Notes: a model not told the origin generated them from the sequence alone. 64,000 nucleotides of DNA from a virus (IMGVR_UViG_3300043395_000420:29246-93245); one strand, 5' to 3'. Numbered from the stretch's first letter, positions 1-63,711 are shown. Numbers and translations are program-made.

Positions 1-1522
1 TTGCTGCAGAATACTTAGCATCTATCGCTTCCTTGAGAGGGATAAGAGTATCATAAAGTATTTCGGAAACACCATCTGTATAAATACTATTTGTATGTAC
101 TTTACTTTGTACCATCCTACTACGAATCTTTGTGATAAGTTCGTATAAGGGACTGTCACTATCTATACCTGCTTTAGTAAATGTCTTCTCATATTCTTTA
201 ATAAGAGACTCCATAGTACTAAGTAATGAGTTAAGATAGAACGCAGTTTTTAAACTGTCTTTGTTATTTACATCTTTAGATATTTCTCTTAGTTGGTCAT
301 TAATACGTTTAACCATAACATCCAACTGCTCTATACTATTAATAAACGCGAGCATTTGTGCACGTTCATAGGTAGCATCCTGCATTGCTTGGTCTATACC
401 GTTTTGGTAATCCTTTAGTAAAGATCTAATCTCATTAATATCTTTACGTTCATATTCATTCTTAAGTTCCGACAGGGCCTCTCTAAACTCCCGGTCATTC
501 TTCATCTTCTTAAGTATAGATTGTACACGGTCATATAAGCTACTAATAGAACTCTGTAGTTTACCTTCATTACGAAGAGTAATCAGGTCATTAATAAACT
601 TATCATGGTCAGCCGCATATGCCGCAAAAGAGTCATCAGTTACAAGTTCTTTATTAAAGGTAAACTGGTTATTGGCCTCAAGCATCCGGGCTAATTCAAG
701 TATAGAAGTAGATTCAGATAAGGAAGATATGTCAATACGTTTACCAAAGATCTTACGTAGTGCTTGTTTAATAGCATATAATATTTTCTGTACTATGGAT
801 GAGAGATTGGGAGAAATATTTTGTTGTAGAGATTTTAGGTTGGCAATGTCAGTTAACGTTTTTACTATCACCTCCTCTGCAAAGTATTCTGTCCCTTCTG
901 CTAATGACGGATGAGATGCCTTGACATCTTCAATAATCTGTGGGTTGGTAGCAGATATTTCAGCATATAGTTTATCAAACAAAGATTTATTTTCTTTTGC
1001 TAGGGCCCTTACTATAGGATGACAGAACTCATGGAATACTGTCTTAGCCGTTACAAAGTCATTTACTAGATATACTGTATCTCCTAGAAAGAATCCGGGT
1101 TTACCATTTCTATACTGGTTTTCCGGTGCTAGATTAGCAGTTATTGCTGCTGCTTCTTCTGCTGTAACCATTCTATACTGTATACCAAGGTTACGTTGTA
1201 ATGCTTCTGCTATTTCTATTATTGCAGATCTAGATGACAGGTCTTTAAATACTTCTTTGTTTACTACAGGTTCTGCCATTACATGGTAGTCAGGTCTTCC
1301 GGCAACATATTGTCCGAAACCATCATACGTATCTGTAACTACTTGTTTATCAGATAGTTCTAATGCATAACCTTGATCGTTTAGTACAGGTAAGAACTCT
1401 TCAGGGGTAGGTAAACTATCCATGTTACGTTCTTTAGCATAGCGTAATGCCTTGTCAGCAAGATGCTGTCCAAACTTTTCTTTTAACGCGTCAAATTCCG
1501 GGGTGTTTCTACTGCAAGCCAT
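1..1522 (-). CDS. Large virion cargo protein with N-terminal zincin-like domain (partial, runs off the window start)
   Basis: Not in the ORF track. Manual translation from ATG at 1522 gives MACSRNTPEFDALKEKFG...TVFHEFCHPIVRAL...FAEEVIV. HExxH at 1019-1033 plus a downstream EE. TAATG overlap with the RNAP stop. Position matches the third large crAss-like cargo gene. Confidence 0.85.
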   Translation of the reverse strand, partial: MACSRNTPEFDALKEKFGQHLADKALRYAKERNMDSLPTPEEFLPVLNDQGYALELSDKQVVTDTYDGFGQYVAGRPDYHVMAEPVVNKEVFKDLSSRSAIIEIAEALQRNLGIQYRMVTAEEAAAITANLAPENQYRNGKPGFFLGDTVYLVNDFVTAKTVFHEFCHPIVRALAKENKSLFDKLYAEISATNPQIIEDVKASHPSLAEGTEYFAEEVIVKTLTDIANLKSLQQNISPNLSSIVQKILYAIKQALRKIFGKRIDISSLSESTSILELARMLEANNQFTFNKELVTDDSFAAYAADHDKFINDLITLRNEGKLQSSISSLYDRVQSILKKMKNDREFREALSELKNEYERKDINEIRSLLKDYQNGIDQAMQDATYERAQMLAFINSIEQLDVMVKRINDQLREISKDVNNKDSLKTAFYLNSLLSTMESLIKEYEKTFTKAGIDSDSPLYELITKIRSRMVQSKVHTNSIYTDGVSEILYDTLIPLKEAIDAKYSAA

Positions 1523-4500
1523 TATATACTACAACTTAAAATATCATTTAATATGTCATTAGTTACTTCGGTGTCTGATACTACCTGGTCTCTTTGAACT
1601 TTTTCCGACATCTCTACAGAACCTTTAGCAAATACTCGTGGTAAAGAATTAGGATTTATATAACCAAATGCATCATACAGCCTCTCAGACAAATATACGA
1701 AAGTTTTAGGTGCGGATTGTGGATTTGCCGGTACATTTTCTTCAACAGAACCTATAACCATTCCATTTTCTTCCCATCTATTAATCATAGACTGACCCAT
1801 ACCTCTAAAATTAAATCTTAATACTTTGTCAGGATTAAGTTTCATTTTTTCTACTAGGGCCTGAATAGCAGCATCTATCTGTTGAATGTTATAGTTATAC
1901 TCTTCTTCAGTTTCTTCTACTAGTAAACCTGAAGGTGTAATAGTATTAGTTGTTTTATTCAATGTTCCCTTTGGTTTTCCTGTTTTAGGATCTACGGGTA
2001 TTGCTAAGAACTTAGTAGGTATTCCAAAATAGTTATCTGGTCCTAGACCTGCTAAAACGGCTGATGTTTTATTTAGATCTGTAGTATTAGCAGTACGGCC
2101 AGGTTTTGCCATTACGGTATCAGTTACAAATATTACATTAGGATTAGCCTCTTTAATCTTTTGAATATCAACAGGTTTAAGATTATCAGGAGTTAATGTA
2201 AAATCATATACAGGTATGCCGGTTCCGTTTTGTAAACCTACCATGAACCCATTAGGATTAGATGCTTGTGTAGGTTGAGTAATAGTAGACTTTGATACTA
2301 TTTGCTGGTTAGTACTTACAGAAATTTGAGTAGGTTTAGACCAAGTACCAATAACTTGTCCATCTACTGTAATTTCAGAGTAATTATATCCAGCTTGTTT
2401 CATAGCATCATATAATCTTTTTTCTCCTGTGTTATAGTCACTAGCGTCAGTATAGGCTTTGTTATCTGTAAGAATAGTAGCACCTGCTTCAACAGCCTTA
2501 ATAGCTTCAGCTATTGTTCTATCTTGTTGAGTTTTTTGCTGTTCTTCAGTACCTCTTTTACCACCAATAGATACAAAAATTACATCATTAACTGAATAGT
2601 TACCTGTATTAGCAAAATTACCAGCTTGTTCTCTATATAAATCTGTAGAACTGCCCTTTATACCTTCTCCAAATCCTATATATTGTGTAGCTATGCTGGC
2701 TTTAATAACTGCTTTTTTATCAGCAGCTTGTATAGGTTTTACCGTAAATATATTTTTCTTAGTAAATTTATCACCTGTACTTACAGGAGCTTGTGATTGA
2801 GATGGTTGTACTACTTCAAATTCTATAGCATAAGGATAATTACCCACATGTCTATCTGTAACAGATTTAACCCAACCTTCTTTTTGCCAAGTAGCATCTT
2901 GATACTCTTGTGTAAAAGGAGATACTTTAGTAATTCTAGTATAAACTTGTCTACCTGTATTATCAGTCATCCGGATAACTTTACCAACTAAGTCTTCAAT
3001 TTTAGAAAGATTATAGTCTTTCATCATTCTAGAAACATCAGTCTTAGCTCTAGTAGTTCTAGTTCTATCTCCAGAAATAATAAGATCCATGGTAGATTTA
3101 TCTTTAAACTGTGGTTGCATAGTTCTTGTTTTCCACACATCTCCTTCTTTATATTTAGAACCATCGGCAAAATTTTGTTCAATAGCTGGTAAACTATCAG
3201 CTACAATAAACTCATTACTTACAGGTTCTTGTGCAGGTTCTTCACCAACAATTTCTGGAGTACCTAATTTTTGACTAGTAGCAATATAGACCATATCAGT
3301 TGCTCTAGATACAGCCACATATTTTAATTCTTGCTGTACGTTTTTGTCTTTGAAACTGTTAATAGTATCATCTAATATCAATACTTTAGTATAAGTACCT
3401 CCTTGAGATTTGTGAATAGTATGAGCATACCCGTAGTCAAAAGTTTGATTAAATAAAGTTTTACCATTTTGAATAACAGGTTTCATTGAAGTTATGGCAT
3501 TTTCATAGTCAGATGCTTTTTGAAAATATGATGCTGCAGCACGAATATCTCCATCTTTTTTTAACCTAGCCCCTGCTTCTCTTAAATCTTTAATAGTTTT
3601 TGATAATCTTATTAGTTTAGAATCATCATCATTAACATCTGCTACAAATATTACTTCTGGTTTTTCATCGGCTTTTCCTAATAGATTTTGAATAGTTACC
3701 TTATAACCTTTAAATTCAACTTTATCACCCAATAAATCTAAAGTTACAGTAGAAGGTTTTATATCTAATACTTCATAGTCACCACTATTCATTATTTTAT
3801 ACTGACCTGTTCTATAATTTTTATCAAAGTTACTTCTTCCCATTATCAGGTCTCCGACAACAAGTTGCTGTTGAGCAGCATCTCCAAAAAGTAATTTTCT
3901 AACTTCTTTATTTTTAGCAGTTACTACAGCATTAGTAGCAGATAAAATTCTAAAGTATAACTTATTTTTTGCAAACTCTGGACTTAAGAAGTTTTCTTTA
4001 ACAGCTTCGTTTACAAATGTATTGTTATCACCATAAACTACTCCTATACCATTAACTACTTTTGTTTTATAGTTAAGTTCTTTACCATTACGCAAATTAG
4101 TAGACTCTTCTAAAATAGGGTTGTCTCCTGTTCTTTCTACCTTAGTTAATTGCAACTGGGTTCCTTTATCAAAAACTTTTGATAGGTTATCTTGTCCTAC
4201 AGGTCTTAACTGTGCAGGATCTCCCATGTATATAATTTTAAGATTAGAATTTTTCTTTTTTTCTTCTTGAATAAAAGCAAATAAACCATCAGCAACCATT
4301 GATGCTTCGTCTAGTATAAGCACGGTAGACTCGTCTGGTTTTAATACACCTTTATTTTGTTTAGCAAAGTTTAGTTTTGCAAGATCATACTCTTCTTCAA
4401 AATTAAAATCAGGATTTAAACCAAACAATGAATGTAATGTATACACTCTTACATCTGGATTTTTAAGTTTTGTTACAGCATTTGCTCTATTAGTAGGAGA

Positions 4501-7500
4501 TGTATAAATAATAGAATCTAATGATACCCTTTGCAGGTATGCATCAAATATTTTCATAATACTAGTCTTACCTGTACCGGCATATCCTTTTAAAGTAATC
4601 TGATTATCATAAGCAGCAGGGTTTTTATAAAACTTTTCTAGTTCTAATAAAGCCTCTGTCTGTTGATCATTTAATTTAAACGGTGTGCTAATAGTAACAC
4701 CGTCACTAAATGTCATAGTATTAGCAGGTTGTGATTGATTAGGACTAATTTGACTAGACTTAGGCTGTCTGAATGGTTGTTTATTTTGAGGATCAATATT
4801 TGGATTATTATTATAAGCAGCTAATAATTTTTCTTTTGCTGACTTTTTACCCTTATAGTTTAATACATCAACACCAACACCGTTTTCTACTTTTATTTTA
4901 TACATTGCTCCAAAGTACTTATAGTCATCTTCAAAAGATGTAGGTGTTTCTTCAAATAATTCAAATATGCTTTCTTCTTCAGTTTCAAACTTGTAACCTG
5001 TTTTCTCTAGAATATCTACAAACTCTTTAATAACAGCATCTTTTTTAGAACTAAGTACAACATTTGCAAAGTTTGGATCATAGAAAGTTCTAAATCTCTT
5101 CGCAATATTACTTTTTGCTTGAGAGTTAGTTCCTATAAATATCTTTCTATACTGATCAAATAATAGTTCTGTTAGTTTATTATTTGAATTAGGTACTGCT
5201 TCTAACTGAGTTACGGTATCAATAAACTTACTAACTGGTTCAGCTAGTAGTTCTGATATAACTTTGCTATCTGCAATACTTAATATACTAAATGTACTAT
5301 TAGGATTACTTCCACTTTGTAAGTATGCAACAACATCAAATCTATTAAAGAACTTACTGATATTCTCAGCATCAATGGCAGATATACCAAACTTATCTTG
5401 TAGAATACTAGGGTTCTTTAGTTCATTTAAGTTTTCAGAATATAGATTCTTCTGGTCAATTTCTAATAATGTATCCCTAAACCGTAATGTATTTACGTTT
5501 GCTTTAACATAACTAGAATATGATGATGCCATACTAGAGAATACATCTACTTCTAATGCAGATAATAGATCATAGTATTCTGTAATCTTTTTGAAAGCCG
5601 GATTAGATACAATTTGATCATACTGATATGCATAAGAGTTATTTCCGGTAAATATCCAATACGGTAGATTTATATTATTAAGAGCATGATTACGTAAATA
5701 TGTTTCATACGCCCAAAGTTTTACAGTTTCCTTATTAATGGTGGTAGATTCACCCTTACGTAGTAAAGTTTTGTCTAGATATTTTTCAGATAGTTCTTTT
5801 TCTATCTTCATGTACTCTGCACTTAATGCAACAACAGAGTATTTATAGTTAGGTAATGCTCTTAAACTCTCTCTTTCATATAAGTATTTCTTGTACATAT
5901 CTGCTTCATTTACTCCGGTAAACACATTAGCAGGTAAAGGAGCAACATCTGCATCTAAATACTGTAACTCATTGGAATAGAACTTGTTATATAAGTTTTC
6001 AGCTATAGAGTTTTGATCAACATATATCTTTCCGTCTTTATAAATAGCTGCTCTTCTTGCATAAGGAACTGTAGCAACATCTAACTCAGAGTTTAATACA
6101 TAACTTCTATAGTGTTTATTACTAGGTAATGTAAAGTACCAGTTATAAAATATATAAGGACTAAGTTGCTTCTTGAAATTATCAATTACGGAAGCCTTAT
6201 CAAATGTTACATTTACTCTAGTTTCTCCCATTCTCATACCACTTATATAAGATTCAATATTGGGTTTAGCAAAATATGAATTTATAGAAGTTGAGTTACT
6301 TAAAGGGAAGAAAGGTTCGTATAAACCAATCATAAACTCTTGTATTTTAAAACTACCGATAGGTGAGTTTTTAATAATACTTTCATAAACATCAGGATCC
6401 AAACCTTTAAACTGAGATGCTTTAATATCTTTTCTTAACTGAACTCTAGCATCGTGTAAAGAACTACTTCTTGTAGTATCAAATTTAGTAGCCTGCTTAA
6501 TCTCTGTTAAACCTTTAGACATCTCCAGGATTTCCATAAAATGTAAAAATACATTTCTATCAAAATCTGTATATACGTCTTTGGTTTTATCATCATTAAG
6601 GTTATCTAAATTATCTTCTAATGCCTTTTCATTAAAATAGTTTTCATCAAGATTAGTAAGAGCAATACGGAAATAGTCGTATAGTTTATTTTTAGCAACT
6701 CTTACTTTACCATTAATAGCATTGTATCTATAGTTCTTTGAGTTATCAGGATAAAAACTTTCTTCATTTAATCCAAATCCGTATTTAGAATTTTCTCCAA
6801 ACAAAATACTATCTCTAGCATCAGTATTATGCTGATTAAGTTCAGACTCTTTTCCTAGTACACTAGAGAAAGTTCCTTTTCTAGAACGAGCATCTGTAAT
6901 ATACTCACGTATAATTGGTTGTGATAAGAATAATACAGCTTGGTTAATGGGTACCCCGGTTTGAATTAAGAATAATAATACAGGAGTAAGTTCTTTATTA
7001 CCCTGTAAGTCAAAGATCCATTCGTCTTTTTCTACGTCAACCCAACCATTAATCAACTGGTTAAACAAGTCAGATATCTTATAGAAGTTATTTTTATCAT
7101 AACTATGTGATAATGAGATTCTTTGTTCTCCATTTACATTCATAGTATTATGAGGTAATAATAACACATTACGCATTAAATCACCTGCTTCATTAATTAC
7201 TTTTACATCTGACATGTAAGCACCGATACGGTTAAATACTACGTTAAATGTATTATCTACTGCACCAATACCAAGGGCTTGTTTACCTACAGAGTTATAC
7301 TCTAATTTAGCAAGGTTATACAAAGGCTCATATATACGAGTAGGAGAGAATCCGTTTGGTTCTCCGTTAAATCTTTTCTTTGACGAGTATACACGAGTTT
7401 TGTCTCTGAGTTTTTCTGATATAGGTTTAACAATAGTTGTACTATTAGGGGTAATTAAACTTACAAAGTTTTCAGGATCTAATATAAGATCTTTAGTAGC

Positions 7501-10500
7501 AAGTAATAACTGGTTTTCATATGCAGCCTCATTATCCATTTTCTTAATGAAGGCCTCTTCTGATGTAGCAAGATTATAGTTTTTAAGTATTTCTATAATT
7601 TCACTTTCAGTATAACCCATATCAAACCATTCTTCTCCTAGAGCAGCAGTAAGTATTGTATTTAATAGTTTATTAGACTGTTCAATATCAGTAGAGAATC
7701 TTTTAACAGTAGGACTTACATCACGCGTTAAAGCTCTACGTACAACATCTTTATCATATACTAAGTTACCTAGTTCATCTACAGTACTATTAATTACTTT
7801 AAACTCTTCAACTTCTATTGCTTTAGATTTTAAATTTTGGTATAGTTCTTTAAGGGCTGCTTCACCTCTAACATTTGCTATAGTTAGTTTTGAATTACCT
7901 TTTAGACCTTCCCATCTTAGTACTGGCATTTGAATACTAAGTTTATCAATGTCAAAGTCAGCACCAGACTTAGCAACAATTTCAGTTGCTGGTATGATCA
8001 TATTACCTGCTTCTTCTGGTAAGAATTCTGCAACATGCATTACTTCCATAGAGTTCAAACCTTGTACAGGAATACGAACCCCTACCATAGTTATCATGTC
8101 ACGGTTTTTAGATAACCATTTCTCATCTCTAATAATACTGTTTAGAGCATCTAGTTTAGAAATGTTTTCTGCTTTTGCTTTTCTTGTAACCTCGGGTAAA
8201 CTAAGTAACTTTTTAAAATGACCTTGTATAGATATTTTAACCTCCATACCATTACCAGGAGTATAGAACTTCAAATCATTTGTACCAGAGTACTTTCTTC
8301 TTTCTTCTTCTGTTGCATTTCTAAACTTACCTGCCTTTTCAAATCCAGCACTTGATGCCTGAATTAATGCTTCTCCGGTAACTTTTTGACGGATTAATCT
8401 TTTATTTACTACAGCCGTTAAAAGTTTTTCTATCTGTGAACTAAAGTTAGACAGATCAAGATTAACCATAGGGGCACTCTTTAATGCATCTATGAACTCT
8501 AACTCGTTATCAGATATTTCTTGACGGGTAAGTTGTTTTTCTATAAAGTCAATAAACTTAGTAAGATCTTTAGGACCTTTATCTGTCCAACCTAATTCTT
8601 CAACAAGTTGTTTTTTCTTAAACTCTGTAAGTTGTTTTAGAGCAGACTCATATCTTAAAATCTTAGTATATAGTTTAGACTCTGATTTTTTTACAGATTC
8701 ATCTTTTATAGCATTCCATGCATCATATCTTTCTGTTAAGTCTGTAATTTCTGGTTTAAAATCTACAGGTACTCCATTTTCAAAAGAACCTTCTTCTACA
8801 AGTTTACGTAACTGAGTAGAGAATATAATCTTCTCTTTAAACTCTGGCGCAACTTCTACTTGGTCTTTTAAATAATCTAAATAGATAACGTTCTTGCTAA
8901 AGGTAAATTCTGGTTCATTTAAAGCCAACCAACCTTCTTTGTTTGCATAAAACTTATCAAAGTTTCCATCATTAGTAACAGTTGCAAGTTTAGATCCTGA
9001 TGCAAATACAGCATAATCTATATCTTGCTCTACCATTTTATTATGTAGTTGTTCTAGTTTAGTACCTTTAACTACTGTAGGGATTAATGGCATTAATGAA
9101 AACTTATGAAATGCTTCTACAGGTAAACCGGTTGTAGCCAATGTTCCCCAGTACTGCATCTTTTTAATAGGAAAGAAGTTTGCAATATCTTCTGCAGAGA
9201 CATCATCTCCATTTAGAATTCTAACATATAACTTTTCATGAAGAGTTGTCCATTTATCTAAACCTCTCATCATCAATCTATAAGCATCAAAACTAATCCA
9301 TCCTTGAGCATCTCCTTCTTTCATTCCAGCATATGCATCATCAAATATATTATCTATATTTTGCATTGCTTTATTAATAGTATCCTGAGACGCGTTGGTT
9401 TTAGCAAGACGTTTTCTTTCTTTATCTTTTGCTGCTTTCTTATACTCATCAATATATACAGATGTGCTTACTACATCGGCTAATACTGCAGTATTAAATG
9501 TACCATTATAATCACGTTGACCTACAGTTGTACCATCTGCTTTTGTTTTGGGTCCGGTGTACCATGCAGATTCGGCATACTTACCTTTCTTAGCAGGTTT
9601 ATTTACATAGTTTTGGAAATGTATGTCTGTTCTAGGAGTTTCTCCAGTTGATCCGATACCGGCATTACGTTTATGATACTCTTCTTTTGAGTGATTATAT
9701 ATACCAGGATCTCCATAGTATACAAGACCTGTTTCAATATTATGTAATAACTGATTAGCTGTATATGCTTCTATCAATTGACGGCTAAGTTCTTCTCGAG
9801 TATACTCTTTTGTGTCTCCTACAATTTTTAATATATTAGGAGATAATAAATATCTAGAATCAAAAATACCTTCTTTTTTAAACTTATCTATTACTTGTTG
9901 ATATTGATTCTCTAAGTAACTATTTACCTGATTCTGATATGTATTAGCAAACTTTTCATTAGTATTTAATAGGTTCTTGAAATCTGCTGCTGTGGTAATA
10001 GTTCCCTTATCAATAAGGTTATAAATTTCTGTTTTTTGATCTTCGGTTAAGATATCATCAAACATGATAAACTTAGAACCTACTTCTGCAAGAGTTACAG
10101 GTTTACCTTTCTTTTCATATAAAACTATATTTTTAGCATCAGGATCTGTTTTTGCCTTATGAATTCTTTCAACTTCAGAACTTAAATAACCCATGTATGC
10201 AGCAAGAACTTTAGATTTTCCTGTACTAGATGTTGGATCTTTTGATGCAAACATTTTAGGATTAACATAGTGCTTTGATCCATCTGCGTGTATAATCTGA
10301 TATAGGAAAGTACTACTCTTACCTGCGTGACGTGTTGCTTCAGATGTACCATAGATCATCATCATATAGAAGTCTTGTAGCATTTTAGTAGTCATATCCG
10401 AGTCTGATGACTTAAGACCTACTAAATCTATTTGCTCTCCTATACGCATCTTTGTGCCGTCCATATCAAGAATATTAATTCTTGCATTTAAAACTTTACC

Positions 10501-13500
10501 GGTAGCAGTTACACCTTGGCGTTTAATTTTTTCAGGAGTACTCATGTCAAAAAGAATGTTCATGAGCATACTGTTTTGCATCCAAGGATTTCTATTCAAT
10601 GAAAGATTATTCATTATGTAAATAGGCATACCATTTACATTCTCTGTATTGTCTCTTACTAAATCTTCATAATTAATAGCATTGTTGATACTATCTGTTT
10701 TTCTGGTAATTGTGTTGGGTAATGAGTTTTCATACTTAGTTTTACCAGTAGTAGTTGTAATTGTACTATTAGAAAAATCTCCTGTCCACTGTAAATATAA
10801 ATTACCTAATGTAGTTTTAAAACCTGTAAAAGGTTGAAAAGTAGATTCTTTATACTGAGATTCTTGTTTTAAAAAGGCTTCTCTTAGAGACTTATCTTGT
10901 ACAAGTTTATCAAATGATTTATCAAGTAAGTCTGTTACTCTTGTAAGTTTTATAGGTTCTGCACCTGGTCTATTTAATTTTAACCAGGTATTAAATGCAT
11001 TTATTGCTCTTACTTTATTTTTTAAACCGTTGATTTCGTACAAGTTACCGTTTTCTTTACTAGACAAAGCATTCTTAACAACACTTAATTCTGGCATATA
11101 TAAACCAATAGCCTTTAAAAATGTAATAGGATCTTTTGAAATTACACTAGTAGACATGTATAGGTCTGATGTAAGTTGTTCAATATTAATACTTACAGCC
11201 CCTGTATCAGATGCCTTTACTCTATAAGGTTCTGTTTCACCAGATCTTGTAAATCTAGAGTTAAACAACTTAAATACTTTACTGCTTTCACGACTAGCAT
11301 TTCCAGGACGGATTGTTATATAACTTATATTACCCTTACTGTCTTTAGTTTGCTCAATATCTAAGTTTACAACATTAATTCTAGGTAAGGTAAACAGTTT
11401 ATTTATTTGTCCCCACATACTGTTTTCTAACTCACCTTTAATATTATCAGGATTACCAACCTTCTTTAAGAATGCTTTTACAATAGGAAATAGTTCTTCT
11501 ACTTCCTTTAGTTTATCATAAATTTCTTTAGGGTTACGGGCCCCTTGTGTAATATTTATTAATAAGTTTTGTGCAGTACGTGCTGGTACCATCTTAGGGA
11601 AACCTAAGTCATTCTTCTCAACCTCTCCATTATCATTATATGCTATTAATGTAGACAATGTATAAGATAACTTCTTGTCTATCATGTTATTAATAGAAAC
11701 TTCATTTCCGGACTTATCAGCATATTCTGATCTAGATGTTGTATTATCGTCTTTATCAGCCATGTCTGGTTCAAATGACTGGATATAGTTTTTTTCATAG
11801 TAACTAAGGATTGTTTCTCCTTCTTTAGGATTCATAGGATCCCCGAAGTTGTCTAACATCCATGTTGCTAAATCTATACGGCTTTTTATTTTAATCTTTC
11901 TTTTTTCTGCAGCCTTCTCATATTTTTCTTTTAAACTCTCAATATGGTTTACTAGCTTTTCCTGTACTTTTAAATATGCTGCCTTACGCATTGATGCCTC
12001 AGATATAATACCTATAGTTAAACCTTTAGTATTATACTCATCATTAAGGTCATCAATACTTTCTGACATCAAACCATTCATGCTTTTCATGATAACAGCA
12101 GTGTCGGATAATGATCTGTTTTTAATTTTATTAAGACCGGTTTCTATAAATACAGCATCTGGTTCAAAGACCGGCTCTCCTAATTTACCTACAGCAAGTT
12201 TTTCAAACATCTCTGCTACTTTAGCATTTGCTGTATAGTCTGCTTGGGTTTCTCTAATAGTTGTGTTACTAAATAAATACTGTAATAACTCAAATATCTT
12301 ACTGAAAATCTCTGCAATAATACCTTTGCTCTTGGAGTACTTACCTTTTCCACCACGTAGCATGTGTTCGCGGAACTGTTCTGCTAACCATTCTTCTTTT
12401 TCTAACTTGGTAGCATTTTTAAATTCAACAGTTTTACCGTTATAATTTTCAAATGATCCTTTCATTTGACCAACTGCGTTGTAAAGATCTTCTCTTTGTT
12501 TAGCAGTTAAAAATATTTGAGAAAATGCATGCCATGCCTCATGGTATAAATCAGAAGCATCTGCCCCTTGCCATAAAGTAATACCTGCTAAATTCCAATG
12601 TGCTACTACAGAAGGATCTGTATTAACTGCATCAAACATTACTGATATCGGTACTACATCTGATAACATTCTACCATCAGCAAGTCTGATACTATTATAC
12701 CAGGGTAATGCTGCATTAATAACATCTTGAGATGACTTAGCAGTACTTGGTTTTCTACCTGCTCTTAGTAACAAACTGTCATCTATAAGATTATTTTTCT
12801 TGATTGTATTACTTGCAGATTGGGTTTTAGTTTCAGGTTTTACTTCAGGTATTTTCATACCTAAACTTTCTAAAGCTCGTTTATTAATTTCGTTTTCATA
12901 ATCTGCTGTTGTGGTTGTGCCAGAAACAGATTTATCAAACTCAGTTCTTGAAAGTTGAGAATGTTGATATTCATGTTCTATAACAAAAGACTCCCATTCT
13001 TCATATGTTTTAAACATATCTTCAGGAAAGGCATTTGCACTAGAACCATCTTTTTGTATGCGGGGTGTTGTCCAGGCTTTACTTTCAAACTTACTTTTTA
13101 ATACTGGTTTATTAACGTATATGGTATTATTAGTGCTATTATACTGTGCTCCACCTGGTTCTCCTGTCTTAGAAGTTATTGCCTTTTCTATAATAGGAAC
13201 ACCTTTATAATTTTCTTGAGTACTTTTTGTAATTTCTTTTTTAGTTACTGTACCTGGCATGAATTCTAAATAAGCATTCATTGGTACAAAGTCTCCATTT
13301 TCAACTTTATTTGCTACATAAGCATGCTGTCTTATAAATTCACCATAAGGAATAGTATCAATTTTTGCAGTATATGTACCATCAGCGTTTTGACGTACAT
13401 TACTAAATGTACGCACGGTTGTCATATTATTTTTATATAGATATAGACCGCCTCCCTCGTTATTTACTATAGCATCTGCTATTAAATCTCTAGCATTTGT

Positions 13501-14781
13501 TGTTGTACTGTCTACAGTTTTACCATCTATCTTAATAGAAAGTTCTTCTCCTTTCTTCATTAATACTATACGACCACTTCCTACAGGTAAAAAGTAAAAG
13601 AAGTTTGCTTTATCACTTTCTTTTAGAGTAACCGTCTGTTCCTTTTTTTGATATGATATAGGATTAAGAAGAAAATCCGCCATTTCCAGTGCCTCCTCCA
13701 TAGTAATGCTGTCCATATATATTTGGACATCTTTATTCATAGATGGAGAACTGATGTATATAGAATTATCAGGGCCCTTTTTTAAATTTAGATTTGGGTA
13801 TATTGTTTTAGATAAATCCGTTAATCTTGTTTTATCTGCAGCCATTGTTAAGAAACCAACGTCACCGTTAGTTATCTCATTGATAATGATGTTATTAGCA
13901 GGATCTCTTGCAATAGAACTTGTCATTTTGTCTACTGTTTCTTTCTGCTTACGTTTTTCTTCTGTATTTGGATTTTGTACAGTTTCTAACTTGGTTCTTA
14001 CATAAAAGTATACAGGCTTACCATTTGTTTCAACATATTCACCATTACTATTAAACTCTAAAGGATTTCCTTGAGCATCTGTAAGTACCTGTATATAAAT
14101 TTGATCTAAGTATCTTAGTAGTTCAGGATTATCTTCTATATCTGCAAGTTGTCTGCTGTCTAATTTATCTAGTGGAATTCTGCTTAATGCCATTGTTGTA
14201 AGATATACCTTTCCAGAATATCCTTTAATGGTCATATTAGCAGCCATCATGTTTCTGATAATTGTATAAAACATTTCTACAGAAAAGTTTTCTTCTTGTC
14301 CTGTAGTAGTAAACATGCTGTCTGGAACAGGATAGTCTACTTGTTTTATCAATTGTGAGTTTACTTTAGCATTAACATCATCTTCTGCTTGCTGGTTTCC
14401 GGCAATAGTTGCTGCTTCTTGCAGGTCAGTTTTAGTTATAGTTTCAACACTGATATATTTGGCAACAGTGTTTAGATCTGGATTAGTTCTCCATTCTTTT
14501 GCTAACTTGTTATTACCATTAAGATCAAAATTAGTATCCGTCATATAATCAGATACGGCAACATATCCTGCAGCCTGTCTAATCATATCGGGTACTAGAT
14601 GGGCATATGACAATGCCTTATCTTTATCTTTAGACTTTTCTAAAACATAGTCATACAATTCTTTAGCAATTGCTTGAGGATCAATGTTTTGTTTTTTGTT
14701 TTTTACATCTTCTATAGATTCTCTAACAAATCTATATACGGATGCTAAGGATTCATTACTGTCTATTGCGCAAAAAGCCAT
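1522..14781 (-). CDS. Virion-packaged DNA-dependent RNA polymerase (crAss-like, phi14:2 gp66-type) with zincin, SF1B helicase and ASCH-like accessory domains
   Basis: Catalytic motif GADFDIDK (~7943-7966) preceded by RIPVQGLNSM. Also DAQGWIS, STQLRKL and HExxH motifs HEYQH and HEAWH. C-terminal GYAGTGKT...DEASM...HKSQG helicase motifs. 4419 aa. Confidence 0.92.
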   Translation of the reverse strand: MAFCAIDSNESLASVYRFVRESIEDVKNKKQNIDPQAIAKELYDYVLEKSKDKDKALSYAHLVPDMIRQAAGYVAVSDYMTDTNFDLNGNNKLAKEWRTNPDLNTVAKYISVETITKTDLQEAATIAGNQQAEDDVNAKVNSQLIKQVDYPVPDSMFTTTGQEENFSVEMFYTIIRNMMAANMTIKGYSGKVYLTTMALSRIPLDKLDSRQLADIEDNPELLRYLDQIYIQVLTDAQGNPLEFNSNGEYVETNGKPVYFYVRTKLETVQNPNTEEKRKQKETVDKMTSSIARDPANNIIINEITNGDVGFLTMAADKTRLTDLSKTIYPNLNLKKGPDNSIYISSPSMNKDVQIYMDSITMEEALEMADFLLNPISYQKKEQTVTLKESDKANFFYFLPVGSGRIVLMKKGEELSIKIDGKTVDSTTTNARDLIADAIVNNEGGGLYLYKNNMTTVRTFSNVRQNADGTYTAKIDTIPYGEFIRQHAYVANKVENGDFVPMNAYLEFMPGTVTKKEITKSTQENYKGVPIIEKAITSKTGEPGGAQYNSTNNTIYVNKPVLKSKFESKAWTTPRIQKDGSSANAFPEDMFKTYEEWESFVIEHEYQHSQLSRTEFDKSVSGTTTTADYENEINKRALESLGMKIPEVKPETKTQSASNTIKKNNLIDDSLLLRAGRKPSTAKSSQDVINAALPWYNSIRLADGRMLSDVVPISVMFDAVNTDPSVVAHWNLAGITLWQGADASDLYHEAWHAFSQIFLTAKQREDLYNAVGQMKGSFENYNGKTVEFKNATKLEKEEWLAEQFREHMLRGGKGKYSKSKGIIAEIFSKIFELLQYLFSNTTIRETQADYTANAKVAEMFEKLAVGKLGEPVFEPDAVFIETGLNKIKNRSLSDTAVIMKSMNGLMSESIDDLNDEYNTKGLTIGIISEASMRKAAYLKVQEKLVNHIESLKEKYEKAAEKRKIKIKSRIDLATWMLDNFGDPMNPKEGETILSYYEKNYIQSFEPDMADKDDNTTSRSEYADKSGNEVSINNMIDKKLSYTLSTLIAYNDNGEVEKNDLGFPKMVPARTAQNLLINITQGARNPKEIYDKLKEVEELFPIVKAFLKKVGNPDNIKGELENSMWGQINKLFTLPRINVVNLDIEQTKDSKGNISYITIRPGNASRESSKVFKLFNSRFTRSGETEPYRVKASDTGAVSINIEQLTSDLYMSTSVISKDPITFLKAIGLYMPELSVVKNALSSKENGNLYEINGLKNKVRAINAFNTWLKLNRPGAEPIKLTRVTDLLDKSFDKLVQDKSLREAFLKQESQYKESTFQPFTGFKTTLGNLYLQWTGDFSNSTITTTTGKTKYENSLPNTITRKTDSINNAINYEDLVRDNTENVNGMPIYIMNNLSLNRNPWMQNSMLMNILFDMSTPEKIKRQGVTATGKVLNARINILDMDGTKMRIGEQIDLVGLKSSDSDMTTKMLQDFYMMMIYGTSEATRHAGKSSTFLYQIIHADGSKHYVNPKMFASKDPTSSTGKSKVLAAYMGYLSSEVERIHKAKTDPDAKNIVLYEKKGKPVTLAEVGSKFIMFDDILTEDQKTEIYNLIDKGTITTAADFKNLLNTNEKFANTYQNQVNSYLENQYQQVIDKFKKEGIFDSRYLLSPNILKIVGDTKEYTREELSRQLIEAYTANQLLHNIETGLVYYGDPGIYNHSKEEYHKRNAGIGSTGETPRTDIHFQNYVNKPAKKGKYAESAWYTGPKTKADGTTVGQRDYNGTFNTAVLADVVSTSVYIDEYKKAAKDKERKRLAKTNASQDTINKAMQNIDNIFDDAYAGMKEGDAQGWISFDAYRLMMRGLDKWTTLHEKLYVRILNGDDVSAEDIANFFPIKKMQYWGTLATTGLPVEAFHKFSLMPLIPTVVKGTKLEQLHNKMVEQDIDYAVFASGSKLATVTNDGNFDKFYANKEGWLALNEPEFTFSKNVIYLDYLKDQVEVAPEFKEKIIFSTQLRKLVEEGSFENGVPVDFKPEITDLTERYDAWNAIKDESVKKSESKLYTKILRYESALKQLTEFKKKQLVEELGWTDKGPKDLTKFIDFIEKQLTRQEISDNELEFIDALKSAPMVNLDLSNFSSQIEKLLTAVVNKRLIRQKVTGEALIQASSAGFEKAGKFRNATEEERRKYSGTNDLKFYTPGNGMEVKISIQGHFKKLLSLPEVTRKAKAENISKLDALNSIIRDEKWLSKNRDMITMVGVRIPVQGLNSMEVMHVAEFLPEEAGNMIIPATEIVAKSGADFDIDKLSIQMPVLRWEGLKGNSKLTIANVRGEAALKELYQNLKSKAIEVEEFKVINSTVDELGNLVYDKDVVRRALTRDVSPTVKRFSTDIEQSNKLLNTILTAALGEEWFDMGYTESEIIEILKNYNLATSEEAFIKKMDNEAAYENQLLLATKDLILDPENFVSLITPNSTTIVKPISEKLRDKTRVYSSKKRFNGEPNGFSPTRIYEPLYNLAKLEYNSVGKQALGIGAVDNTFNVVFNRIGAYMSDVKVINEAGDLMRNVLLLPHNTMNVNGEQRISLSHSYDKNNFYKISDLFNQLINGWVDVEKDEWIFDLQGNKELTPVLLFLIQTGVPINQAVLFLSQPIIREYITDARSRKGTFSSVLGKESELNQHNTDARDSILFGENSKYGFGLNEESFYPDNSKNYRYNAINGKVRVAKNKLYDYFRIALTNLDENYFNEKALEDNLDNLNDDKTKDVYTDFDRNVFLHFMEILEMSKGLTEIKQATKFDTTRSSSLHDARVQLRKDIKASQFKGLDPDVYESIIKNSPIGSFKIQEFMIGLYEPFFPLSNSTSINSYFAKPNIESYISGMRMGETRVNVTFDKASVIDNFKKQLSPYIFYNWYFTLPSNKHYRSYVLNSELDVATVPYARRAAIYKDGKIYVDQNSIAENLYNKFYSNELQYLDADVAPLPANVFTGVNEADMYKKYLYERESLRALPNYKYSVVALSAEYMKIEKELSEKYLDKTLLRKGESTTINKETVKLWAYETYLRNHALNNINLPYWIFTGNNSYAYQYDQIVSNPAFKKITEYYDLLSALEVDVFSSMASSYSSYVKANVNTLRFRDTLLEIDQKNLYSENLNELKNPSILQDKFGISAIDAENISKFFNRFDVVAYLQSGSNPNSTFSILSIADSKVISELLAEPVSKFIDTVTQLEAVPNSNNKLTELLFDQYRKIFIGTNSQAKSNIAKRFRTFYDPNFANVVLSSKKDAVIKEFVDILEKTGYKFETEEESIFELFEETPTSFEDDYKYFGAMYKIKVENGVGVDVLNYKGKKSAKEKLLAAYNNNPNIDPQNKQPFRQPKSSQISPNQSQPANTMTFSDGVTISTPFKLNDQQTEALLELEKFYKNPAAYDNQITLKGYAGTGKTSIMKIFDAYLQRVSLDSIIYTSPTNRANAVTKLKNPDVRVYTLHSLFGLNPDFNFEEEYDLAKLNFAKQNKGVLKPDESTVLILDEASMVADGLFAFIQEEKKKNSNLKIIYMGDPAQLRPVGQDNLSKVFDKGTQLQLTKVERTGDNPILEESTNLRNGKELNYKTKVVNGIGVVYGDNNTFVNEAVKENFLSPEFAKNKLYFRILSATNAVVTAKNKEVRKLLFGDAAQQQLVVGDLIMGRSNFDKNYRTGQYKIMNSGDYEVLDIKPSTVTLDLLGDKVEFKGYKVTIQNLLGKADEKPEVIFVADVNDDDSKLIRLSKTIKDLREAGARLKKDGDIRAAASYFQKASDYENAITSMKPVIQNGKTLFNQTFDYGYAHTIHKSQGGTYTKVLILDDTINSFKDKNVQQELKYVAVSRATDMVYIATSQKLGTPEIVGEEPAQEPVSNEFIVADSLPAIEQNFADGSKYKEGDVWKTRTMQPQFKDKSTMDLIISGDRTRTTRAKTDVSRMMKDYNLSKIEDLVGKVIRMTDNTGRQVYTRITKVSPFTQEYQDATWQKEGWVKSVTDRHVGNYPYAIEFEVVQPSQSQAPVSTGDKFTKKNIFTVKPIQAADKKAVIKASIATQYIGFGEGIKGSSTDLYREQAGNFANTGNYSVNDVIFVSIGGKRGTEEQQKTQQDRTIAEAIKAVEAGATILTDNKAYTDASDYNTGEKRLYDAMKQAGYNYSEITVDGQVIGTWSKPTQISVSTNQQIVSKSTITQPTQASNPNGFMVGLQNGTGIPVYDFTLTPDNLKPVDIQKIKEANPNVIFVTDTVMAKPGRTANTTDLNKTSAVLAGLGPDNYFGIPTKFLAIPVDPKTGKPKGTLNKTTNTITPSGLLVEETEEEYNYNIQQIDAAIQALVEKMKLNPDKVLRFNFRGMGQSMINRWEENGMVIGSVEENVPANPQSAPKTFVYLSERLYDAFGYINPNSLPRVFAKGSVEMSEKVQRDQVVSDTEVTNDILNDILSCSI

Positions 14782-60848: not shown

Positions 60849-63059
60849 CTATCTTAAATTTCTAAACGGTTGTTTCGGTATCTTCATTCCACTAAAAGGT
60901 TGCCCACTACGTCCTATATGACGGAACGGGCTCATATTTAATTTACTGAAATTATTTCTCTTATCCAAGTTTTTAGGTGTACCAACCTCTTCATATCTCT
61001 TTTTATATCCTCTATTTGCTTGTTGAACTTTAGCAAATGCGACTAATGCTGCAAATGATACAAGTCTATCCACGTTTAATCCTTCCTGATATGCGGCCAT
61101 TTCAACAAGTAACATAGGGTCTGGTATACGTTCTACACCATATATACGTTTTACTATTTCACCATCCGGTTTTATTTCCTGGTCTAGTTCTTCTTTTAAG
61201 AAATCAATAGCATAACTTAGCATATGACTCTTAAACAAAGTACCTGTATTTCTCCAACCATACTCTTGAAACACATTAGCATTAGCACCAATATCTTTTA
61301 AGAATAATATTTGCGATCTAGGAACCAGATACTTCTGTTTTTTTCTATAGAGCATATGGTTAATAAACTGAGAAATATTATTTTCTACTATGGTCCAGGC
61401 ATTGTACCATTCTATAATGAGTTCTAATCTCTCATGTGTTTTATTAATATCATCAAATCTTCCACACCAAGCTGCTACTAGTTTATCTCTTTCTATAAAA
61501 GTTTCTACTTTTTCACCATCATTTCTGGTTACTTCTACTGCAGTTTTATATACATAAATAGAACATAATGATTCTGATGTTGTAGTTTTACCTTCTCCTA
61601 CAGGGTCAACAGACGCATAATACATTCCAAATTCTGGTTCTTTTACAGGTCTTTCCCAACATACCAATGTACCAGTTTTATCTTCCATCTTTTTATCTAC
61701 AGGAAACTGATTAATTGGTAACTTATTTGTATTTTTTACTTCAACTTCTCCCCTTTCATTTCTAAAAATATCTAAAAACTCTGTAGCATATTCTTTATCT
61801 TCAATACGTCTTTGTTGTGCTCCTATTAAGTTTAAAGGAAATACAGATACTTTTCTATAAGCAAATGCTTCCTCAATATTTCTAGGATGCTGAGATATAC
61901 GTAACTGATACTGTTCTGGACTAAGGTCTTTCTTCCATATTTCAAATTGTTCATCTAATGCTTTAAGGGCTTCTTCTACTTTAGAGTTACCAAACTCATC
62001 TATAAAAGGAGGCATAGACCATTGTTCTGGAATAAATAAACCTGATCTACCTAGTGTACCTTTAGAGTCTATAAGATCTGTTTCTACTGCATATATATCA
62101 TTAGGATCAGGTCTTAATGTCATCTCTTTAAGAGGTTCACACTGATCTAAGTCACCGACAGAACCTGCTGCTATGAACATACCTGTAGTAACAAATCCAG
62201 ATCTCATAGCAGGACGGATATACTCAAAGGTAGTATCCATCTTGGGGGCAATACCAGCCTCCTCATGGAAGAAATACTTACATGGTCCACCGACTCCATT
62301 AGTTGGGTCTTTCTCAAAAGACATTCCTTGAAGTACACCTTTAAGACCTACCTCTGTTTTACGTTTCTGAGAACCCTGTACTATCTCAATCTTTTGTTGC
62401 CATAGTAATACTTTTCCAGGATTCATTGGACGATACCATGCAGTATGTTTATTTAAGAATGCTTCATATTCATTTAAGAACTTCCAGGATCCTTTATCAT
62501 TAATATAATCTTTAAGACTAGCCCCTACTTTTAAAGTAATACCTTCTTCAAACCAGATCTGATTAATCATCTTACCCATATGATAATATGATGAAGCTAT
62601 CTGACGTTTCTTAAGTATAGAACAATGTTTATAATTAAGTTCTGCTAAAAGTTCATATAATGCCATATGATACTGTGCATCTCGCACGTCCGCGAAGCCG
62701 AACTTCTGAATCTCCTTATTGAAGATGGGTAGGAAGTTTAACCACATGTAGTAGTCTCTTGGAAGATACCAAGTATTGGTACCATTCTGAAATATTACAC
62801 CATTTCTACATTTCTTCTTTTCATGATCCCAGTATGCTATATAATCCTTGGTACCTTGTGGAGATGTACAGTAAAACCCATTCTGATTAAATAGTCTAGC
62901 TTGTTCATTAAATATAAAACTAGTTTCATCTAGTTCATATTTACCAGGTTCTCTAAATATAGATAGTACAAAGTCTTTATATTCATCTCTTGTTTCAAAA
63001 GATGTTGTAAACCAAGTACCGTTTTTCCAACTAGGTATGTCTATAAAACTAGTACTCAT
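60849..63059 (-). CDS. terL: Terminase large subunit
   Basis: ATPase Walker A-like LKKRQIASSY and Walker B FFHEEAG; RNase H-like nuclease YASVDPV...IVENN...NVDRLVS. Confidence 0.92.
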   Translation of the reverse strand: MSTSFIDIPSWKNGTWFTTSFETRDEYKDFVLSIFREPGKYELDETSFIFNEQARLFNQNGFYCTSPQGTKDYIAYWDHEKKKCRNGVIFQNGTNTWYLPRDYYMWLNFLPIFNKEIQKFGFADVRDAQYHMALYELLAELNYKHCSILKKRQIASSYYHMGKMINQIWFEEGITLKVGASLKDYINDKGSWKFLNEYEAFLNKHTAWYRPMNPGKVLLWQQKIEIVQGSQKRKTEVGLKGVLQGMSFEKDPTNGVGGPCKYFFHEEAGIAPKMDTTFEYIRPAMRSGFVTTGMFIAAGSVGDLDQCEPLKEMTLRPDPNDIYAVETDLIDSKGTLGRSGLFIPEQWSMPPFIDEFGNSKVEEALKALDEQFEIWKKDLSPEQYQLRISQHPRNIEEAFAYRKVSVFPLNLIGAQQRRIEDKEYATEFLDIFRNERGEVEVKNTNKLPINQFPVDKKMEDKTGTLVCWERPVKEPEFGMYYASVDPVGEGKTTTSESLCSIYVYKTAVEVTRNDGEKVETFIERDKLVAAWCGRFDDINKTHERLELIIEWYNAWTIVENNISQFINHMLYRKKQKYLVPRSQILFLKDIGANANVFQEYGWRNTGTLFKSHMLSYAIDFLKEELDQEIKPDGEIVKRIYGVERIPDPMLLVEMAAYQEGLNVDRLVSFAALVAFAKVQQANRGYKKRYEEVGTPKNLDKRNNFSKLNMSPFRHIGRSGQPFSGMKIPKQPFRNLR

Positions 63060-63711
63060 TAAGCAGTCTTAGTATTTCATTCAATGACTCATGTCTATGA
63101 TTATCATGTAGGATAATTTTATTTACCCAATCTGATTTATCTAATTTAGATATGTCATGAATAGCAGAGTCATTTTTAAACTTTAAATCTATCTGATGAG
63201 CATCTCCCGTAAATATCATAGTAGCATTTTTACCCAGACGTCCTACACACATTTGTAACTGTGATTTAGTAAGATTCTGAAACTCATCTACTATACATAC
63301 ACAGTCTTCAAAAGTTCTACCTCTAAAGTGTGTAAGAGATACTAGTTCTAAAGATTCATTTTCTTCTAACTTATTTAGTATCTCTGGTTTATTATACACC
63401 TTACGGATATTAGACTTAATTGGAACTAGCCAAGGTTCCATCTTTTCTTTTTCAGAACCTGGTAAGAAGCCGTTATCTTCTGTAGATACGGTAGGTCTAG
63501 TAATAACAATCTTATTTACTTTGCGTTTAAATAACATATCTAATGCTATTTGTACGGCTAATAAGGTTTTACCAGAACCCGCCTGACCAATAAGAAAATT
63601 AAATGGTCTTTGTAAGATAAGTTCCTTAGCACGTTTTTGCTCTTCTGAAAGAGTTAGTGAAAACTTGATATCACCTTTAGGGGGATCCTTCTCAATGTTT
63701 TGCTTTGCCAT
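63049..63711 (-). CDS. phoH: PhoH-family ATPase
   Basis: GQAGSGKT, ITRP, GFLPG, RGRTF, IVDEFQN, GDAHQID and NHRH: full PhoH motif set. Confidence 0.95.
   Translation of the reverse strand: MAKQNIEKDPPKGDIKFSLTLSEEQKRAKELILQRPFNFLIGQAGSGKTLLAVQIALDMLFKRKVNKIVITRPTVSTEDNGFLPGSEKEKMEPWLVPIKSNIRKVYNKPEILNKLEENESLELVSLTHFRGRTFEDCVCIVDEFQNLTKSQLQMCVGRLGKNATMIFTGDAHQIDLKFKNDSAIHDISKLDKSDWVNKIILHDNHRHESLNEILRLLNEY

Follow-up and report, generated by a model that had tools for sequence, protein, structure and literature searches.

Why would a phage carry a complete DNA helicase inside the gene for the RNA polymerase that it presumably packages in its virion? The question is raised by a stretch of 64,000 nucleotides (IMGVR_UViG_3300043395_000420:29246-93245, hereafter the window), in which one giant open reading frame (ORF; P0001) joins a virion RNA polymerase (vRNAP) of the kind found in crAss-like phages, the most abundant human gut viruses, to a helicase resembling phage T4 Dda. 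The window lies within a 93,245-bp IMG/VR virus record, a single metagenomic contig with an estimated completeness of 78%. We find that the fusion is real, intact and not unique to this phage, and conclude that the helicase is probably a helper injected into the host, one that the polymerase does not depend on. For what it helps with, the explanation we favour, with belief and doubt about evenly balanced, is that it opens or clears the entering genome for the enzymes delivered alongside it. The frame, the helicase domain and its motifs are placed as follows (window positions; aa, residues of the ORF product):

1522-14781, minus strand: virion RNA polymerase polyprotein, 4419 aa, a single open frame under translation table 11
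3247-4716, minus strand: Dda-like superfamily 1B (SF1B) helicase domain, aa 3356-3845, from motifs, profiles and an AlphaFold2 (AF2) model
4660-4674, minus strand: motif Q, LNDQQ, aa 3370-3374
4564-4587, minus strand: motif I (Walker A), GYAGTGKT, aa 3399-3406
aa 3428-3433, minus strand: motif Ia, SPTNRA
4297-4317, minus strand: motif II, ILDEASM, aa 3489-3495
aa 3519-3528, minus strand: motif III, MGDPAQLRPV
aa 3545-3551, minus strand: motif IV, LTKVERT
3394-3429, minus strand: motif V, YAHTIHKSQGGT, aa 3785-3796
3301-3321, minus strand: motif VI, YVAVSRA, aa 3821-3827
4678-4803, minus strand: linker rich in Q, P, S and T, aa 3327-3368, from a composition scan

A preliminary description of this DNA had named eight helicase motifs and read them, with flanking linkers, as a complete RecD/Dda-like SF1B helicase fused with the virion RNA polymerase. 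All eight are found in the order and at the places that it gave (aa 3370-3827, window 3301-4674), and linkers do flank the domain, the one listed above before it and a Pro/Glu-rich one beyond aa 3836 (also from the composition scan). Profiles and structure agree that the helicase is complete and its motifs intact. Pfam finds AAA_30 (E 2.4e-18) and UvrD_C_2 (E 4.7e-07) within it, PHROG 325 (‘Dda-like helicase’) matches it with E 4.6e-82, and phmmer against PDB sequences matches T4 Dda (3UPU) with E 2.2e-14: this similarity is far above chance. AF2 modeled aa 3356-3845 from a 22-sequence alignment with a pLDDT (predicted local distance difference test) of 88.4 and a predicted TM-score (pTM) of 0.84, and the top match of that model among solved structures in Foldseek was again T4 Dda (E 1.7e-29, TM 0.78), with RecD2 and Pif1 scoring lower. 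The predicted fold is Dda-like, with two RecA-like domains and 1B and 2B inserts: strands 100-103 and 116-119 of the model, which fall between motifs Ia and II, form a putative 1B hairpin, or pin, and the second RecA domain has a beta-rich insert (model residues 290-359) predicted to be the SH3-like 2B region. As a member of this family, the helicase would be expected to be active and to move 5'-3'.

The polymerase that shares its frame is marked by these features:

4870-12666, minus strand: RNA polymerase (RNAP) module homologous to phi14:2 gp66, about aa 706-3304, from contiguous blastp homology over query residues 706-3190/3303 and the match to PDB 6VR4
7945-7959, minus strand: DFDID, RNAP catalytic motif, aa 2275-2279, aligned to the DFDID of gp66 by phmmer
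12961-12975, minus strand: HEYQH, zincin-like metal-binding motif, aa 603-607, read in translation, with no Pfam match

Using phmmer, we matched phi14:2 gp66 (PDB 6VR4) to aa 1813-2326 and 2550-2631 of the ORF (E 1.8e-21); on the gp66 side the alignment spans residues 965-1427 and 1593-1674 only, which is as far as it speaks to the question of the two double-psi beta-barrels. A RIPxx...DFDxDK block is common to the ORF and its relatives. The helicase is internal to the frame, about 1080 aa C-terminal to DFDID and with 574 residues after it, so that one frame of 4419 aa holds both the gp66 homology and the helicase, and the fusion stands as first described. The same description had held that the phi14:2 enzyme is about half as large and prefers single-stranded templates in vitro; gp66 has 2194 residues in the PDB entry, and it is reported to transcribe single-stranded DNA (ssDNA) well and double-stranded DNA (dsDNA) poorly (bioRxiv 10.1101/2020.03.07.982082). 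Most related loci have an HExxH motif at a comparable distance before the helicase; no profile matches a zincin-like peptidase here, and a zincin-like domain has been described in the transcription gene block of crAss-like phages (Drobysheva et al.).

Could the fusion be an assembly artefact, or the helicase a decayed and inactive domain? The origin of the window, a single contig that is 78% complete, speaks for an artefact. Against it, 80 IMG/VR loci and two complete GenBank genomes show the same architecture, as do hundreds of protein clusters; recurrence in so many independent assemblies rules out, at the level of sequence data, the misassembly that had been named as the alternative. The two complete genomes are both Suoliviridae, cr50_1 and cr118_1, whose coding sequences span 4774 and 4946 aa, respectively, and carry no annotation beyond ‘DNA helicase’. 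Searching 5.8 billion proteins with the helicase as query, restricted to giant proteins, gave at least 494 clusters that share it, and for 111 of the best 120 of these DFDxD lies upstream of the helicase. The 80 IMG/VR loci were found with an alignment as query, a single helicase sequence having found none; in most of them the helicase shares its frame with DFDxD, 900-1470 aa before it, and with HExxH, which typically precedes it by 2200-2900 aa. One further locus (L098, with P0124) was set aside, stop codons of all three types running through the match.

Decay is opposed by conservation and by the high confidence of the structural model. Across 240 non-redundant representatives the key motif residues are 95-100% conserved, with 99-100% for the Gly and Lys of Walker A, the DE of motif II, GD..Q of motif III, the Arg of motif IV, KSQG of motif V and SR of motif VI. 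For the same protein pairs, identity is 45-50% in the helicase vs 22-33% in the RNAP core (mean p-distance 0.55 vs 0.71), a pattern indicating that the helicase is under selection. Taken together, an artefact or a dead domain is barely credible. The fused copy is also the sole AAA_30-type helicase in four complete genomes that carry the fusion.

A sequence variant was seen in cr50_1 (L001:15001-16443), where motif V reads TVWKSQDSTY as against TIHKSQGGTY, with His replaced by Trp and Gly by Asp and the other motifs retained; by its sequence this could be a weakened or altered copy. Two other peculiarities of the relatives affect how their genes are read. Forms of only 1300-2400 aa were rejected as true split genes: a group I intron at DFDxD interrupts them. 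In these short-form vRNAP genes an insertion of 276 or ~900 nt directly follows the DFDxD motif, identified in one IMG/VR locus (L006:5506-5849) as Rfam RF00028 with 78.6 bits and present in another relative at L010:6336-7241, the ~900-nt version occurring in some relatives. Gene callers split the polyprotein because the intron sits there, and introns in the DxDxD motif have already been reported (PMC7886860, for the Zeta group; PMC10136315). In about 25 loci (L014-L034, L067, L069, L074) the vRNAP-helicase frame contains 14-55 in-frame TAG codons and is open only if TAG encodes an amino acid, consistent with the TAG reassignment known from delta-group crAss-like phages (PMC7886860, PMC10136315).

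Given a real and conserved helicase, is it part of the polymerase? The region that answers this question is bounded and filled by the following modules:

4768-4929, minus strand: small conserved module, aa 3285-3338 (~54 aa), just before the helicase linker, with copies 51-70% identical
2776-3246, minus strand: module X, possibly ASCH-like, aa 3846-4002, AF2 pLDDT about 75-89
2272-2775, minus strand: module Y, an alpha/beta domain, aa 4003-4170, AF2 pLDDT 93-98
1525-2271, minus strand: domain Z, extreme C-terminus, aa 4171-4419, 64% identical at the C-terminus of P0392

We collected 863 giant relatives containing the RNAP core (query aa 1600-2640) and took a helicase census of the best 119: 21 carry a helicase and 98 do not. 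The nearest relative, P0392, is among those without. It is collinear with the window protein over aa 1-3303 (72.6% identity) and matches again over aa 4159-4419 (64% identity), down to identical last residues; between those blocks the window protein has 855 aa (linker, helicase, X and Y) vs 292 aa in P0392, whose insert starts with a NADAR domain (3302-3431) replacing the helicase-X-Y segment. Collinear flanks around different inserts therefore delimit what we read as a variable payload slot between the RNAP module and the conserved C-terminal domain. This exact swap, against a 73%-identical relative, is new. In other relatives module Y occupies the slot alone, or module X lies near the N-terminus.

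The helicase also keeps characteristic company. Recognisable accessory domains directly adjoin it in helicase-bearing relatives (NADAR, cpYpsA and helicase, in that order, in P0119; helicase and then an AlkB-like domain in P0018), and NADAR, cpYpsA, AlkB-like, DUF1848 and gp30.3 domains occur in varying order among the relatives. With its RNAP, helicase and X, Y and Z, the window protein has an architecture of the polyvalent type. A NADAR or AlkB-like domain is present in 6 of the 21 helicase-bearing near relatives vs 5 of the 98 helicase-less ones (Fisher p = 0.004, uncorrected for relatedness); the tendency of NADAR, cpYpsA and AlkB-like domains to gather about the helicase is likewise new. 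A helicase profile that matched cr50_1 with E 1e-195, our positive control, gave no match in five complete Suoliviridae genomes (cr55_1, cr1_1, cr130_1, cr10_1 and cr273_1), and we therefore dropped the notion of a helicase present throughout that family; the cr55_1 polyprotein is of similar size (4551 aa) with a different tail. A survey of architectures had been put forward in the preliminary description as a check on the fusion. It upheld the fusion as widespread, yet found it optional, swappable and variably placed, and comparison across these proteins identifies the helicase as an optional, exchangeable cassette.

This result bears directly on what the preliminary description had proposed for a tethered helicase, namely that it could open the duplex for the RNAP, help pull in the genome or strip host proteins, and above all on the role of a dedicated transcription partner that would let a two-barrel RNAP use duplex DNA and may help draw the genome in. 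The gp66 template preference cited above fits such a role, as does the finding that QDE-1, a structural homologue of gp66, needs the helicase QDE-3 and the ssDNA-binding protein RPA (bioRxiv 10.1101/2020.03.07.982082); the linkage of helicase and RNAP occurs in two architectures and two families, and the fused helicases are a lineage apart. The geometry would also be suitable: a helicase with the SF1B polarity would advance 5'-3' along the non-template strand as the RNAP reads its template 3'-5', and both would travel in one direction, like RecD and RecB in RecBCD. However, the comparisons indicate that none of the proposed functions can be obligatory, because the nearest relative has NADAR in place of the helicase, because 98 of the 119 nearest vRNAP relatives lack one, because it is missing throughout the five complete Suoliviridae genomes and because its position relative to the RNAP core varies by lineage. 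Other observations point the same way: cr116_1 is also without any SF1B helicase, Intestiviridae and Crevaviridae encode theirs as a separate replication-module gene, about 1000 aa and flexible linkers separate helicase from catalytic core in the window protein, and the slot is shared with enzymes that have no part in transcription. We regard a dedicated partner as unlikely. In its strict form, with an RNAP that needs the helicase, it is contradicted by the many close relatives without one, and the optional booster that this leaves has in our view only an outside chance. Similarly improbable is a covalent bipolar transcription motor, in which the helicase would feed single-stranded template to an RNAP unable to melt duplex and may power entry; if true, it would be the first natural RNAP-helicase fusion enzyme and a handle on how a crAss-like vRNAP starts on duplex DNA.

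The second architecture and the ancestry of the helicase give a further view of its history. Seven loci (L078 and L080-L085) have their helicase close to the N-terminus of a giant ORF (aa 300-1087), and in six of the seven RNAP homology and DFDxD follow 2300-3300 aa downstream, the seventh (L084) having a shorter frame and no DFDxD. Locus L081 has a 53%-identical copy of the window's module Y directly after its helicase, and the large terminase (TerL) of its genome is 53% identical to that of cr116_1 and 47% to that of IAS virus, so we place it in a Steigviridae lineage; the N-terminal architecture in Steigviridae is new. The genome of cr116_1 contains no AAA_30-type/SF1B helicase. Intestiviridae and Crevaviridae encode their SF1 helicase in a gene of its own, ~480 aa long, that adjoins UDG and DNA polymerase (PolB) genes.

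We built quick maximum-likelihood trees, with support from the SH-like approximate likelihood-ratio test (SH-aLRT) only. The stand-alone helicases of Intestiviridae and Crevaviridae form their own clade (99), and all vRNAP-fused helicases form another (89), whose sister (95) consists of two stand-alone helicases of unannotated phages, whose genes have NrdD, DNA ligase and PolA around them. The window helicase falls, within the fused clade, in a group (97) of Steigviridae-type and main Suoliviridae-type helicases, and the helicases of its RNAP kin (P0400, P0403, P0444, P0480 and others) lie outside that group on a separate branch (99). Comparing helicase and RNAP phylogenies, another check suggested at the outset, gave incongruent trees, and the two sets of distances correlate only moderately (Mantel r 0.51). 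Because the helicase tree disagrees with the polymerase tree, the cassette appears to move between genes. Three proteins of ~480 aa classed as stand-alone (P0123, P0124 and P0179) nest inside the fused clade and may be fragments, fissions or transfers; otherwise the fused lineage seems to occur almost only inside vRNAP polyproteins. Our reading is that a Dda-like helicase of a replication module was recruited once into a vRNAP polyprotein and later exchanged among such genes. The single clade of fused helicases, its discordance with RNAP kinship and the sole-copy status of the fused helicase are new.

Such an ancestry suggests that the helicase might be a replication or recombination enzyme packaged ready-made, serving in origin unwinding or recombination from the first minute and independently of the RNAP. 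The gene neighbourhoods of the nearest non-fused relatives (NrdD, DNA ligase and PolA) and of the Intestiviridae and Crevaviridae copies (UDG and PolB) agree with this, and so does the finding that the fused copy is the sole SF1B helicase in four complete genomes. Yet relatives without any such helicase still replicate, late expression followed by packaging is an odd route for a replication factor, and replication of crAss001 begins 30-60 min post infection (PMC10136315), which leaves time for ordinary expression. We consider this explanation quite unlikely.

Starting from the observed identity, intactness, conservation, cassette behaviour and sole-copy status of the helicase, we favour an injected payload enzyme. 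By homology, the ORF would encode a packaged and ejected RNA polymerase polyprotein of a crAss-like phage: gp66 is packaged and ejected in phi14:2 (bioRxiv 10.1101/2020.03.07.982082), mass spectrometry found crAss001 gp47, gp49 and gp50 in virions, and they are proposed to unfold in part on their way through the tail (PMC10172136), and the window polyprotein would by analogy with these homologues be packaged and delivered too. Because it belongs to a virion cargo protein, the helicase would enter the cell together with the leading end of the genome. There its likeliest action would be that of an ATP-driven translocase on single strands of the incoming DNA, which it would unwind or free of bound proteins, thereby making single strands accessible to the co-delivered RNAP and to neighbouring ssDNA-specific repair or anti-defence domains (NADAR, AlkB-like). 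Helicases of the Dda family translocate 5'-3' on ssDNA, unwind duplexes and displace proteins. We prefer this general opening or clearing role because the slot neighbours act on single strands (NADAR and AlkB-like domains belong to families acting on single-stranded nucleic acid) and because the RNAP family prefers single-stranded templates.

Several points weigh against this payload explanation. Most helicase-bearing relatives carry no recognised repair domain, and therefore the helicase must do something in its own right; the enrichment of NADAR and AlkB-like domains (6/21 vs 5/98) ignores kinship among the relatives; polarity and activity are deduced from family membership; and the Suoliviridae are uncultured (PMC10136315). 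A close variant would make the helicase a free-standing anti-defence effector, released from the polyprotein and displacing restriction or CRISPR complexes or R-loops from incoming DNA. T4 Dda is well known to displace proteins from DNA, and the scattered occurrence of the cassette, its horizontal exchange and its sharing of a slot with NADAR, AlkB-like and cpYpsA domains fit the pattern usual for counter-defence payloads in polyvalent proteins (PMC5512222). This variant overlaps with the opening or clearing role that we prefer and differs in the beneficiary alone. We know of no defence system that is countered by an SF1B helicase, and we consider a free-standing anti-defence role quite unlikely.

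The remaining modules and neighbours describe the payload carrier and its source. Copies of the small module at aa 3285-3338 occur in 26 relatives, sometimes elsewhere in the protein, and it could be a cassette boundary or spacer element. Module X has weak structural matches by VIA-align to E. coli YqfB, an ac4C amidohydrolase (Z 5.4), and to the ASCH protein 3iuw (Z 5.0), and it recurs in many giant and small proteins, its position varying among relatives and even being N-terminal. Module Y gave only generic Rossmann-like matches (Z about 5, VIA-align), belongs to no Pfam family and had no usable match in the protein atlas; it recurs in hundreds of giant multidomain proteins and in solo proteins of ~150-190 aa. 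Foldseek returned nothing below E 1e-3 for the C-terminal AF2 model. Domain Z is also C-terminal in P0393-P0398, with or without a helicase. The C-terminal part of the N4 vRNAP is needed for encapsidation, and domain Z may by analogy be needed for packaging or ejection.

The ORF is flanked by a 1929-aa ORF and by another giant ORF that runs off the start of the window, forming a giant late gene block. PHROGs and Pfam gave no match in the RNAP part, in the neighbouring giant ORFs or in modules X, Y and Z, and megablast of the ORF DNA gave none in the phage collection. The TerL gene (60849-63059, minus strand) matches Crassvirales and related Bacteroidota phages only, its best matches being Suoliviridae with an identity of no more than about 25%, as against 42% between the helicase domain and its cr50_1 counterpart. 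The source phage probably represents a family-level lineage related to the named families, Suoliviridae included, but outside them. A 220-aa gene for a PhoH-like P-loop ATPase (63049-63711, minus strand) overlaps the start of the TerL gene; considered as a second helicase, it was rejected, its weak AAA_30 match being that of a PhoH-like ATPase beside TerL.

How an injected RNAP without a sigma factor gains access to a duplex genome is a standing question, the sole enzyme studied preferring ssDNA. An optional cassette provides natural plus/minus variants for the effect of unwinding on early transcription, DNA entry and escape from defence. That the slot is shared with NADAR, AlkB-like and other domains shows the vRNAP polyprotein to be a vehicle for interchangeable payloads and extends the ‘polyvalent protein’ idea to Crassvirales. 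Public annotation of these genes, now only ‘DNA helicase’ or ‘hypothetical protein’, can be improved accordingly. Giant vRNAP polyproteins, with zincin-like and PDDEXK domains in the transcription block, are already in the literature, as is the fusion of three proteins, the homologues of gp65, gp66 and gp67, into one polyprotein (bioRxiv 10.1101/2020.03.07.982082). The papers that we consulted describe no helicase domain, of Dda type or other, in the vRNAP polyprotein of any crAss-like phage; Fig. 3 of Yutin et al. 2021 may depict one.

Among known systems, phi14:2 gp66 (with gp65 and gp67) is like the window protein in having a homologous RNAP core with DFDxD, two-barrelled in gp66, and in its setting in a giant late virion gene block, and differs in being about half the size of the window ORF and without a helicase. 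Polyvalent proteins, as described by Iyer et al. 2017 (PMC5512222), are giant, late-encoded multi-enzyme proteins with shuffled domains, often including a zincin-like peptidase, that are delivered with the DNA; P1 DarB, which has a helicase module and protects incoming DNA, is a precedent for packaged multi-enzyme proteins. The window protein resembles these, including DarB and N4 vRNAP gp50, in its multi-domain, shuffled and presumably DNA-co-delivered design, whereas they have T7-type RNAP modules (N4) and helicases of the SF2/SNF2 type or, rarely, UvrD; the text consulted describes no architecture that pairs a two-barrel crAss-type RNAP with an SF1B helicase of Dda type. In Neurospora, QDE-1 makes RNA from DNA only with the help of a helicase and of a protein that binds ssDNA, but QDE-3 is a RecQ helicase of SF2, 3'-5' and a separate protein, and the parallel with the fusion seen here is no more than an analogy. 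T4 Dda (3UPU), the best structural match, has all the SF1 motifs in common with the window helicase at an identity of only about 23%; it is a free early replication protein, whereas the window helicase would, by homology, be a domain of a late, packaged polyprotein. Closer in kinship, the Intestiviridae and Crevaviridae helicases (e.g., crAssphage gp14) belong to the same family and the same phage order and are about 30% identical, yet they are encoded as separate ~480-aa genes by UDG and PolB and form a clade apart from all of the vRNAP-fused helicases.

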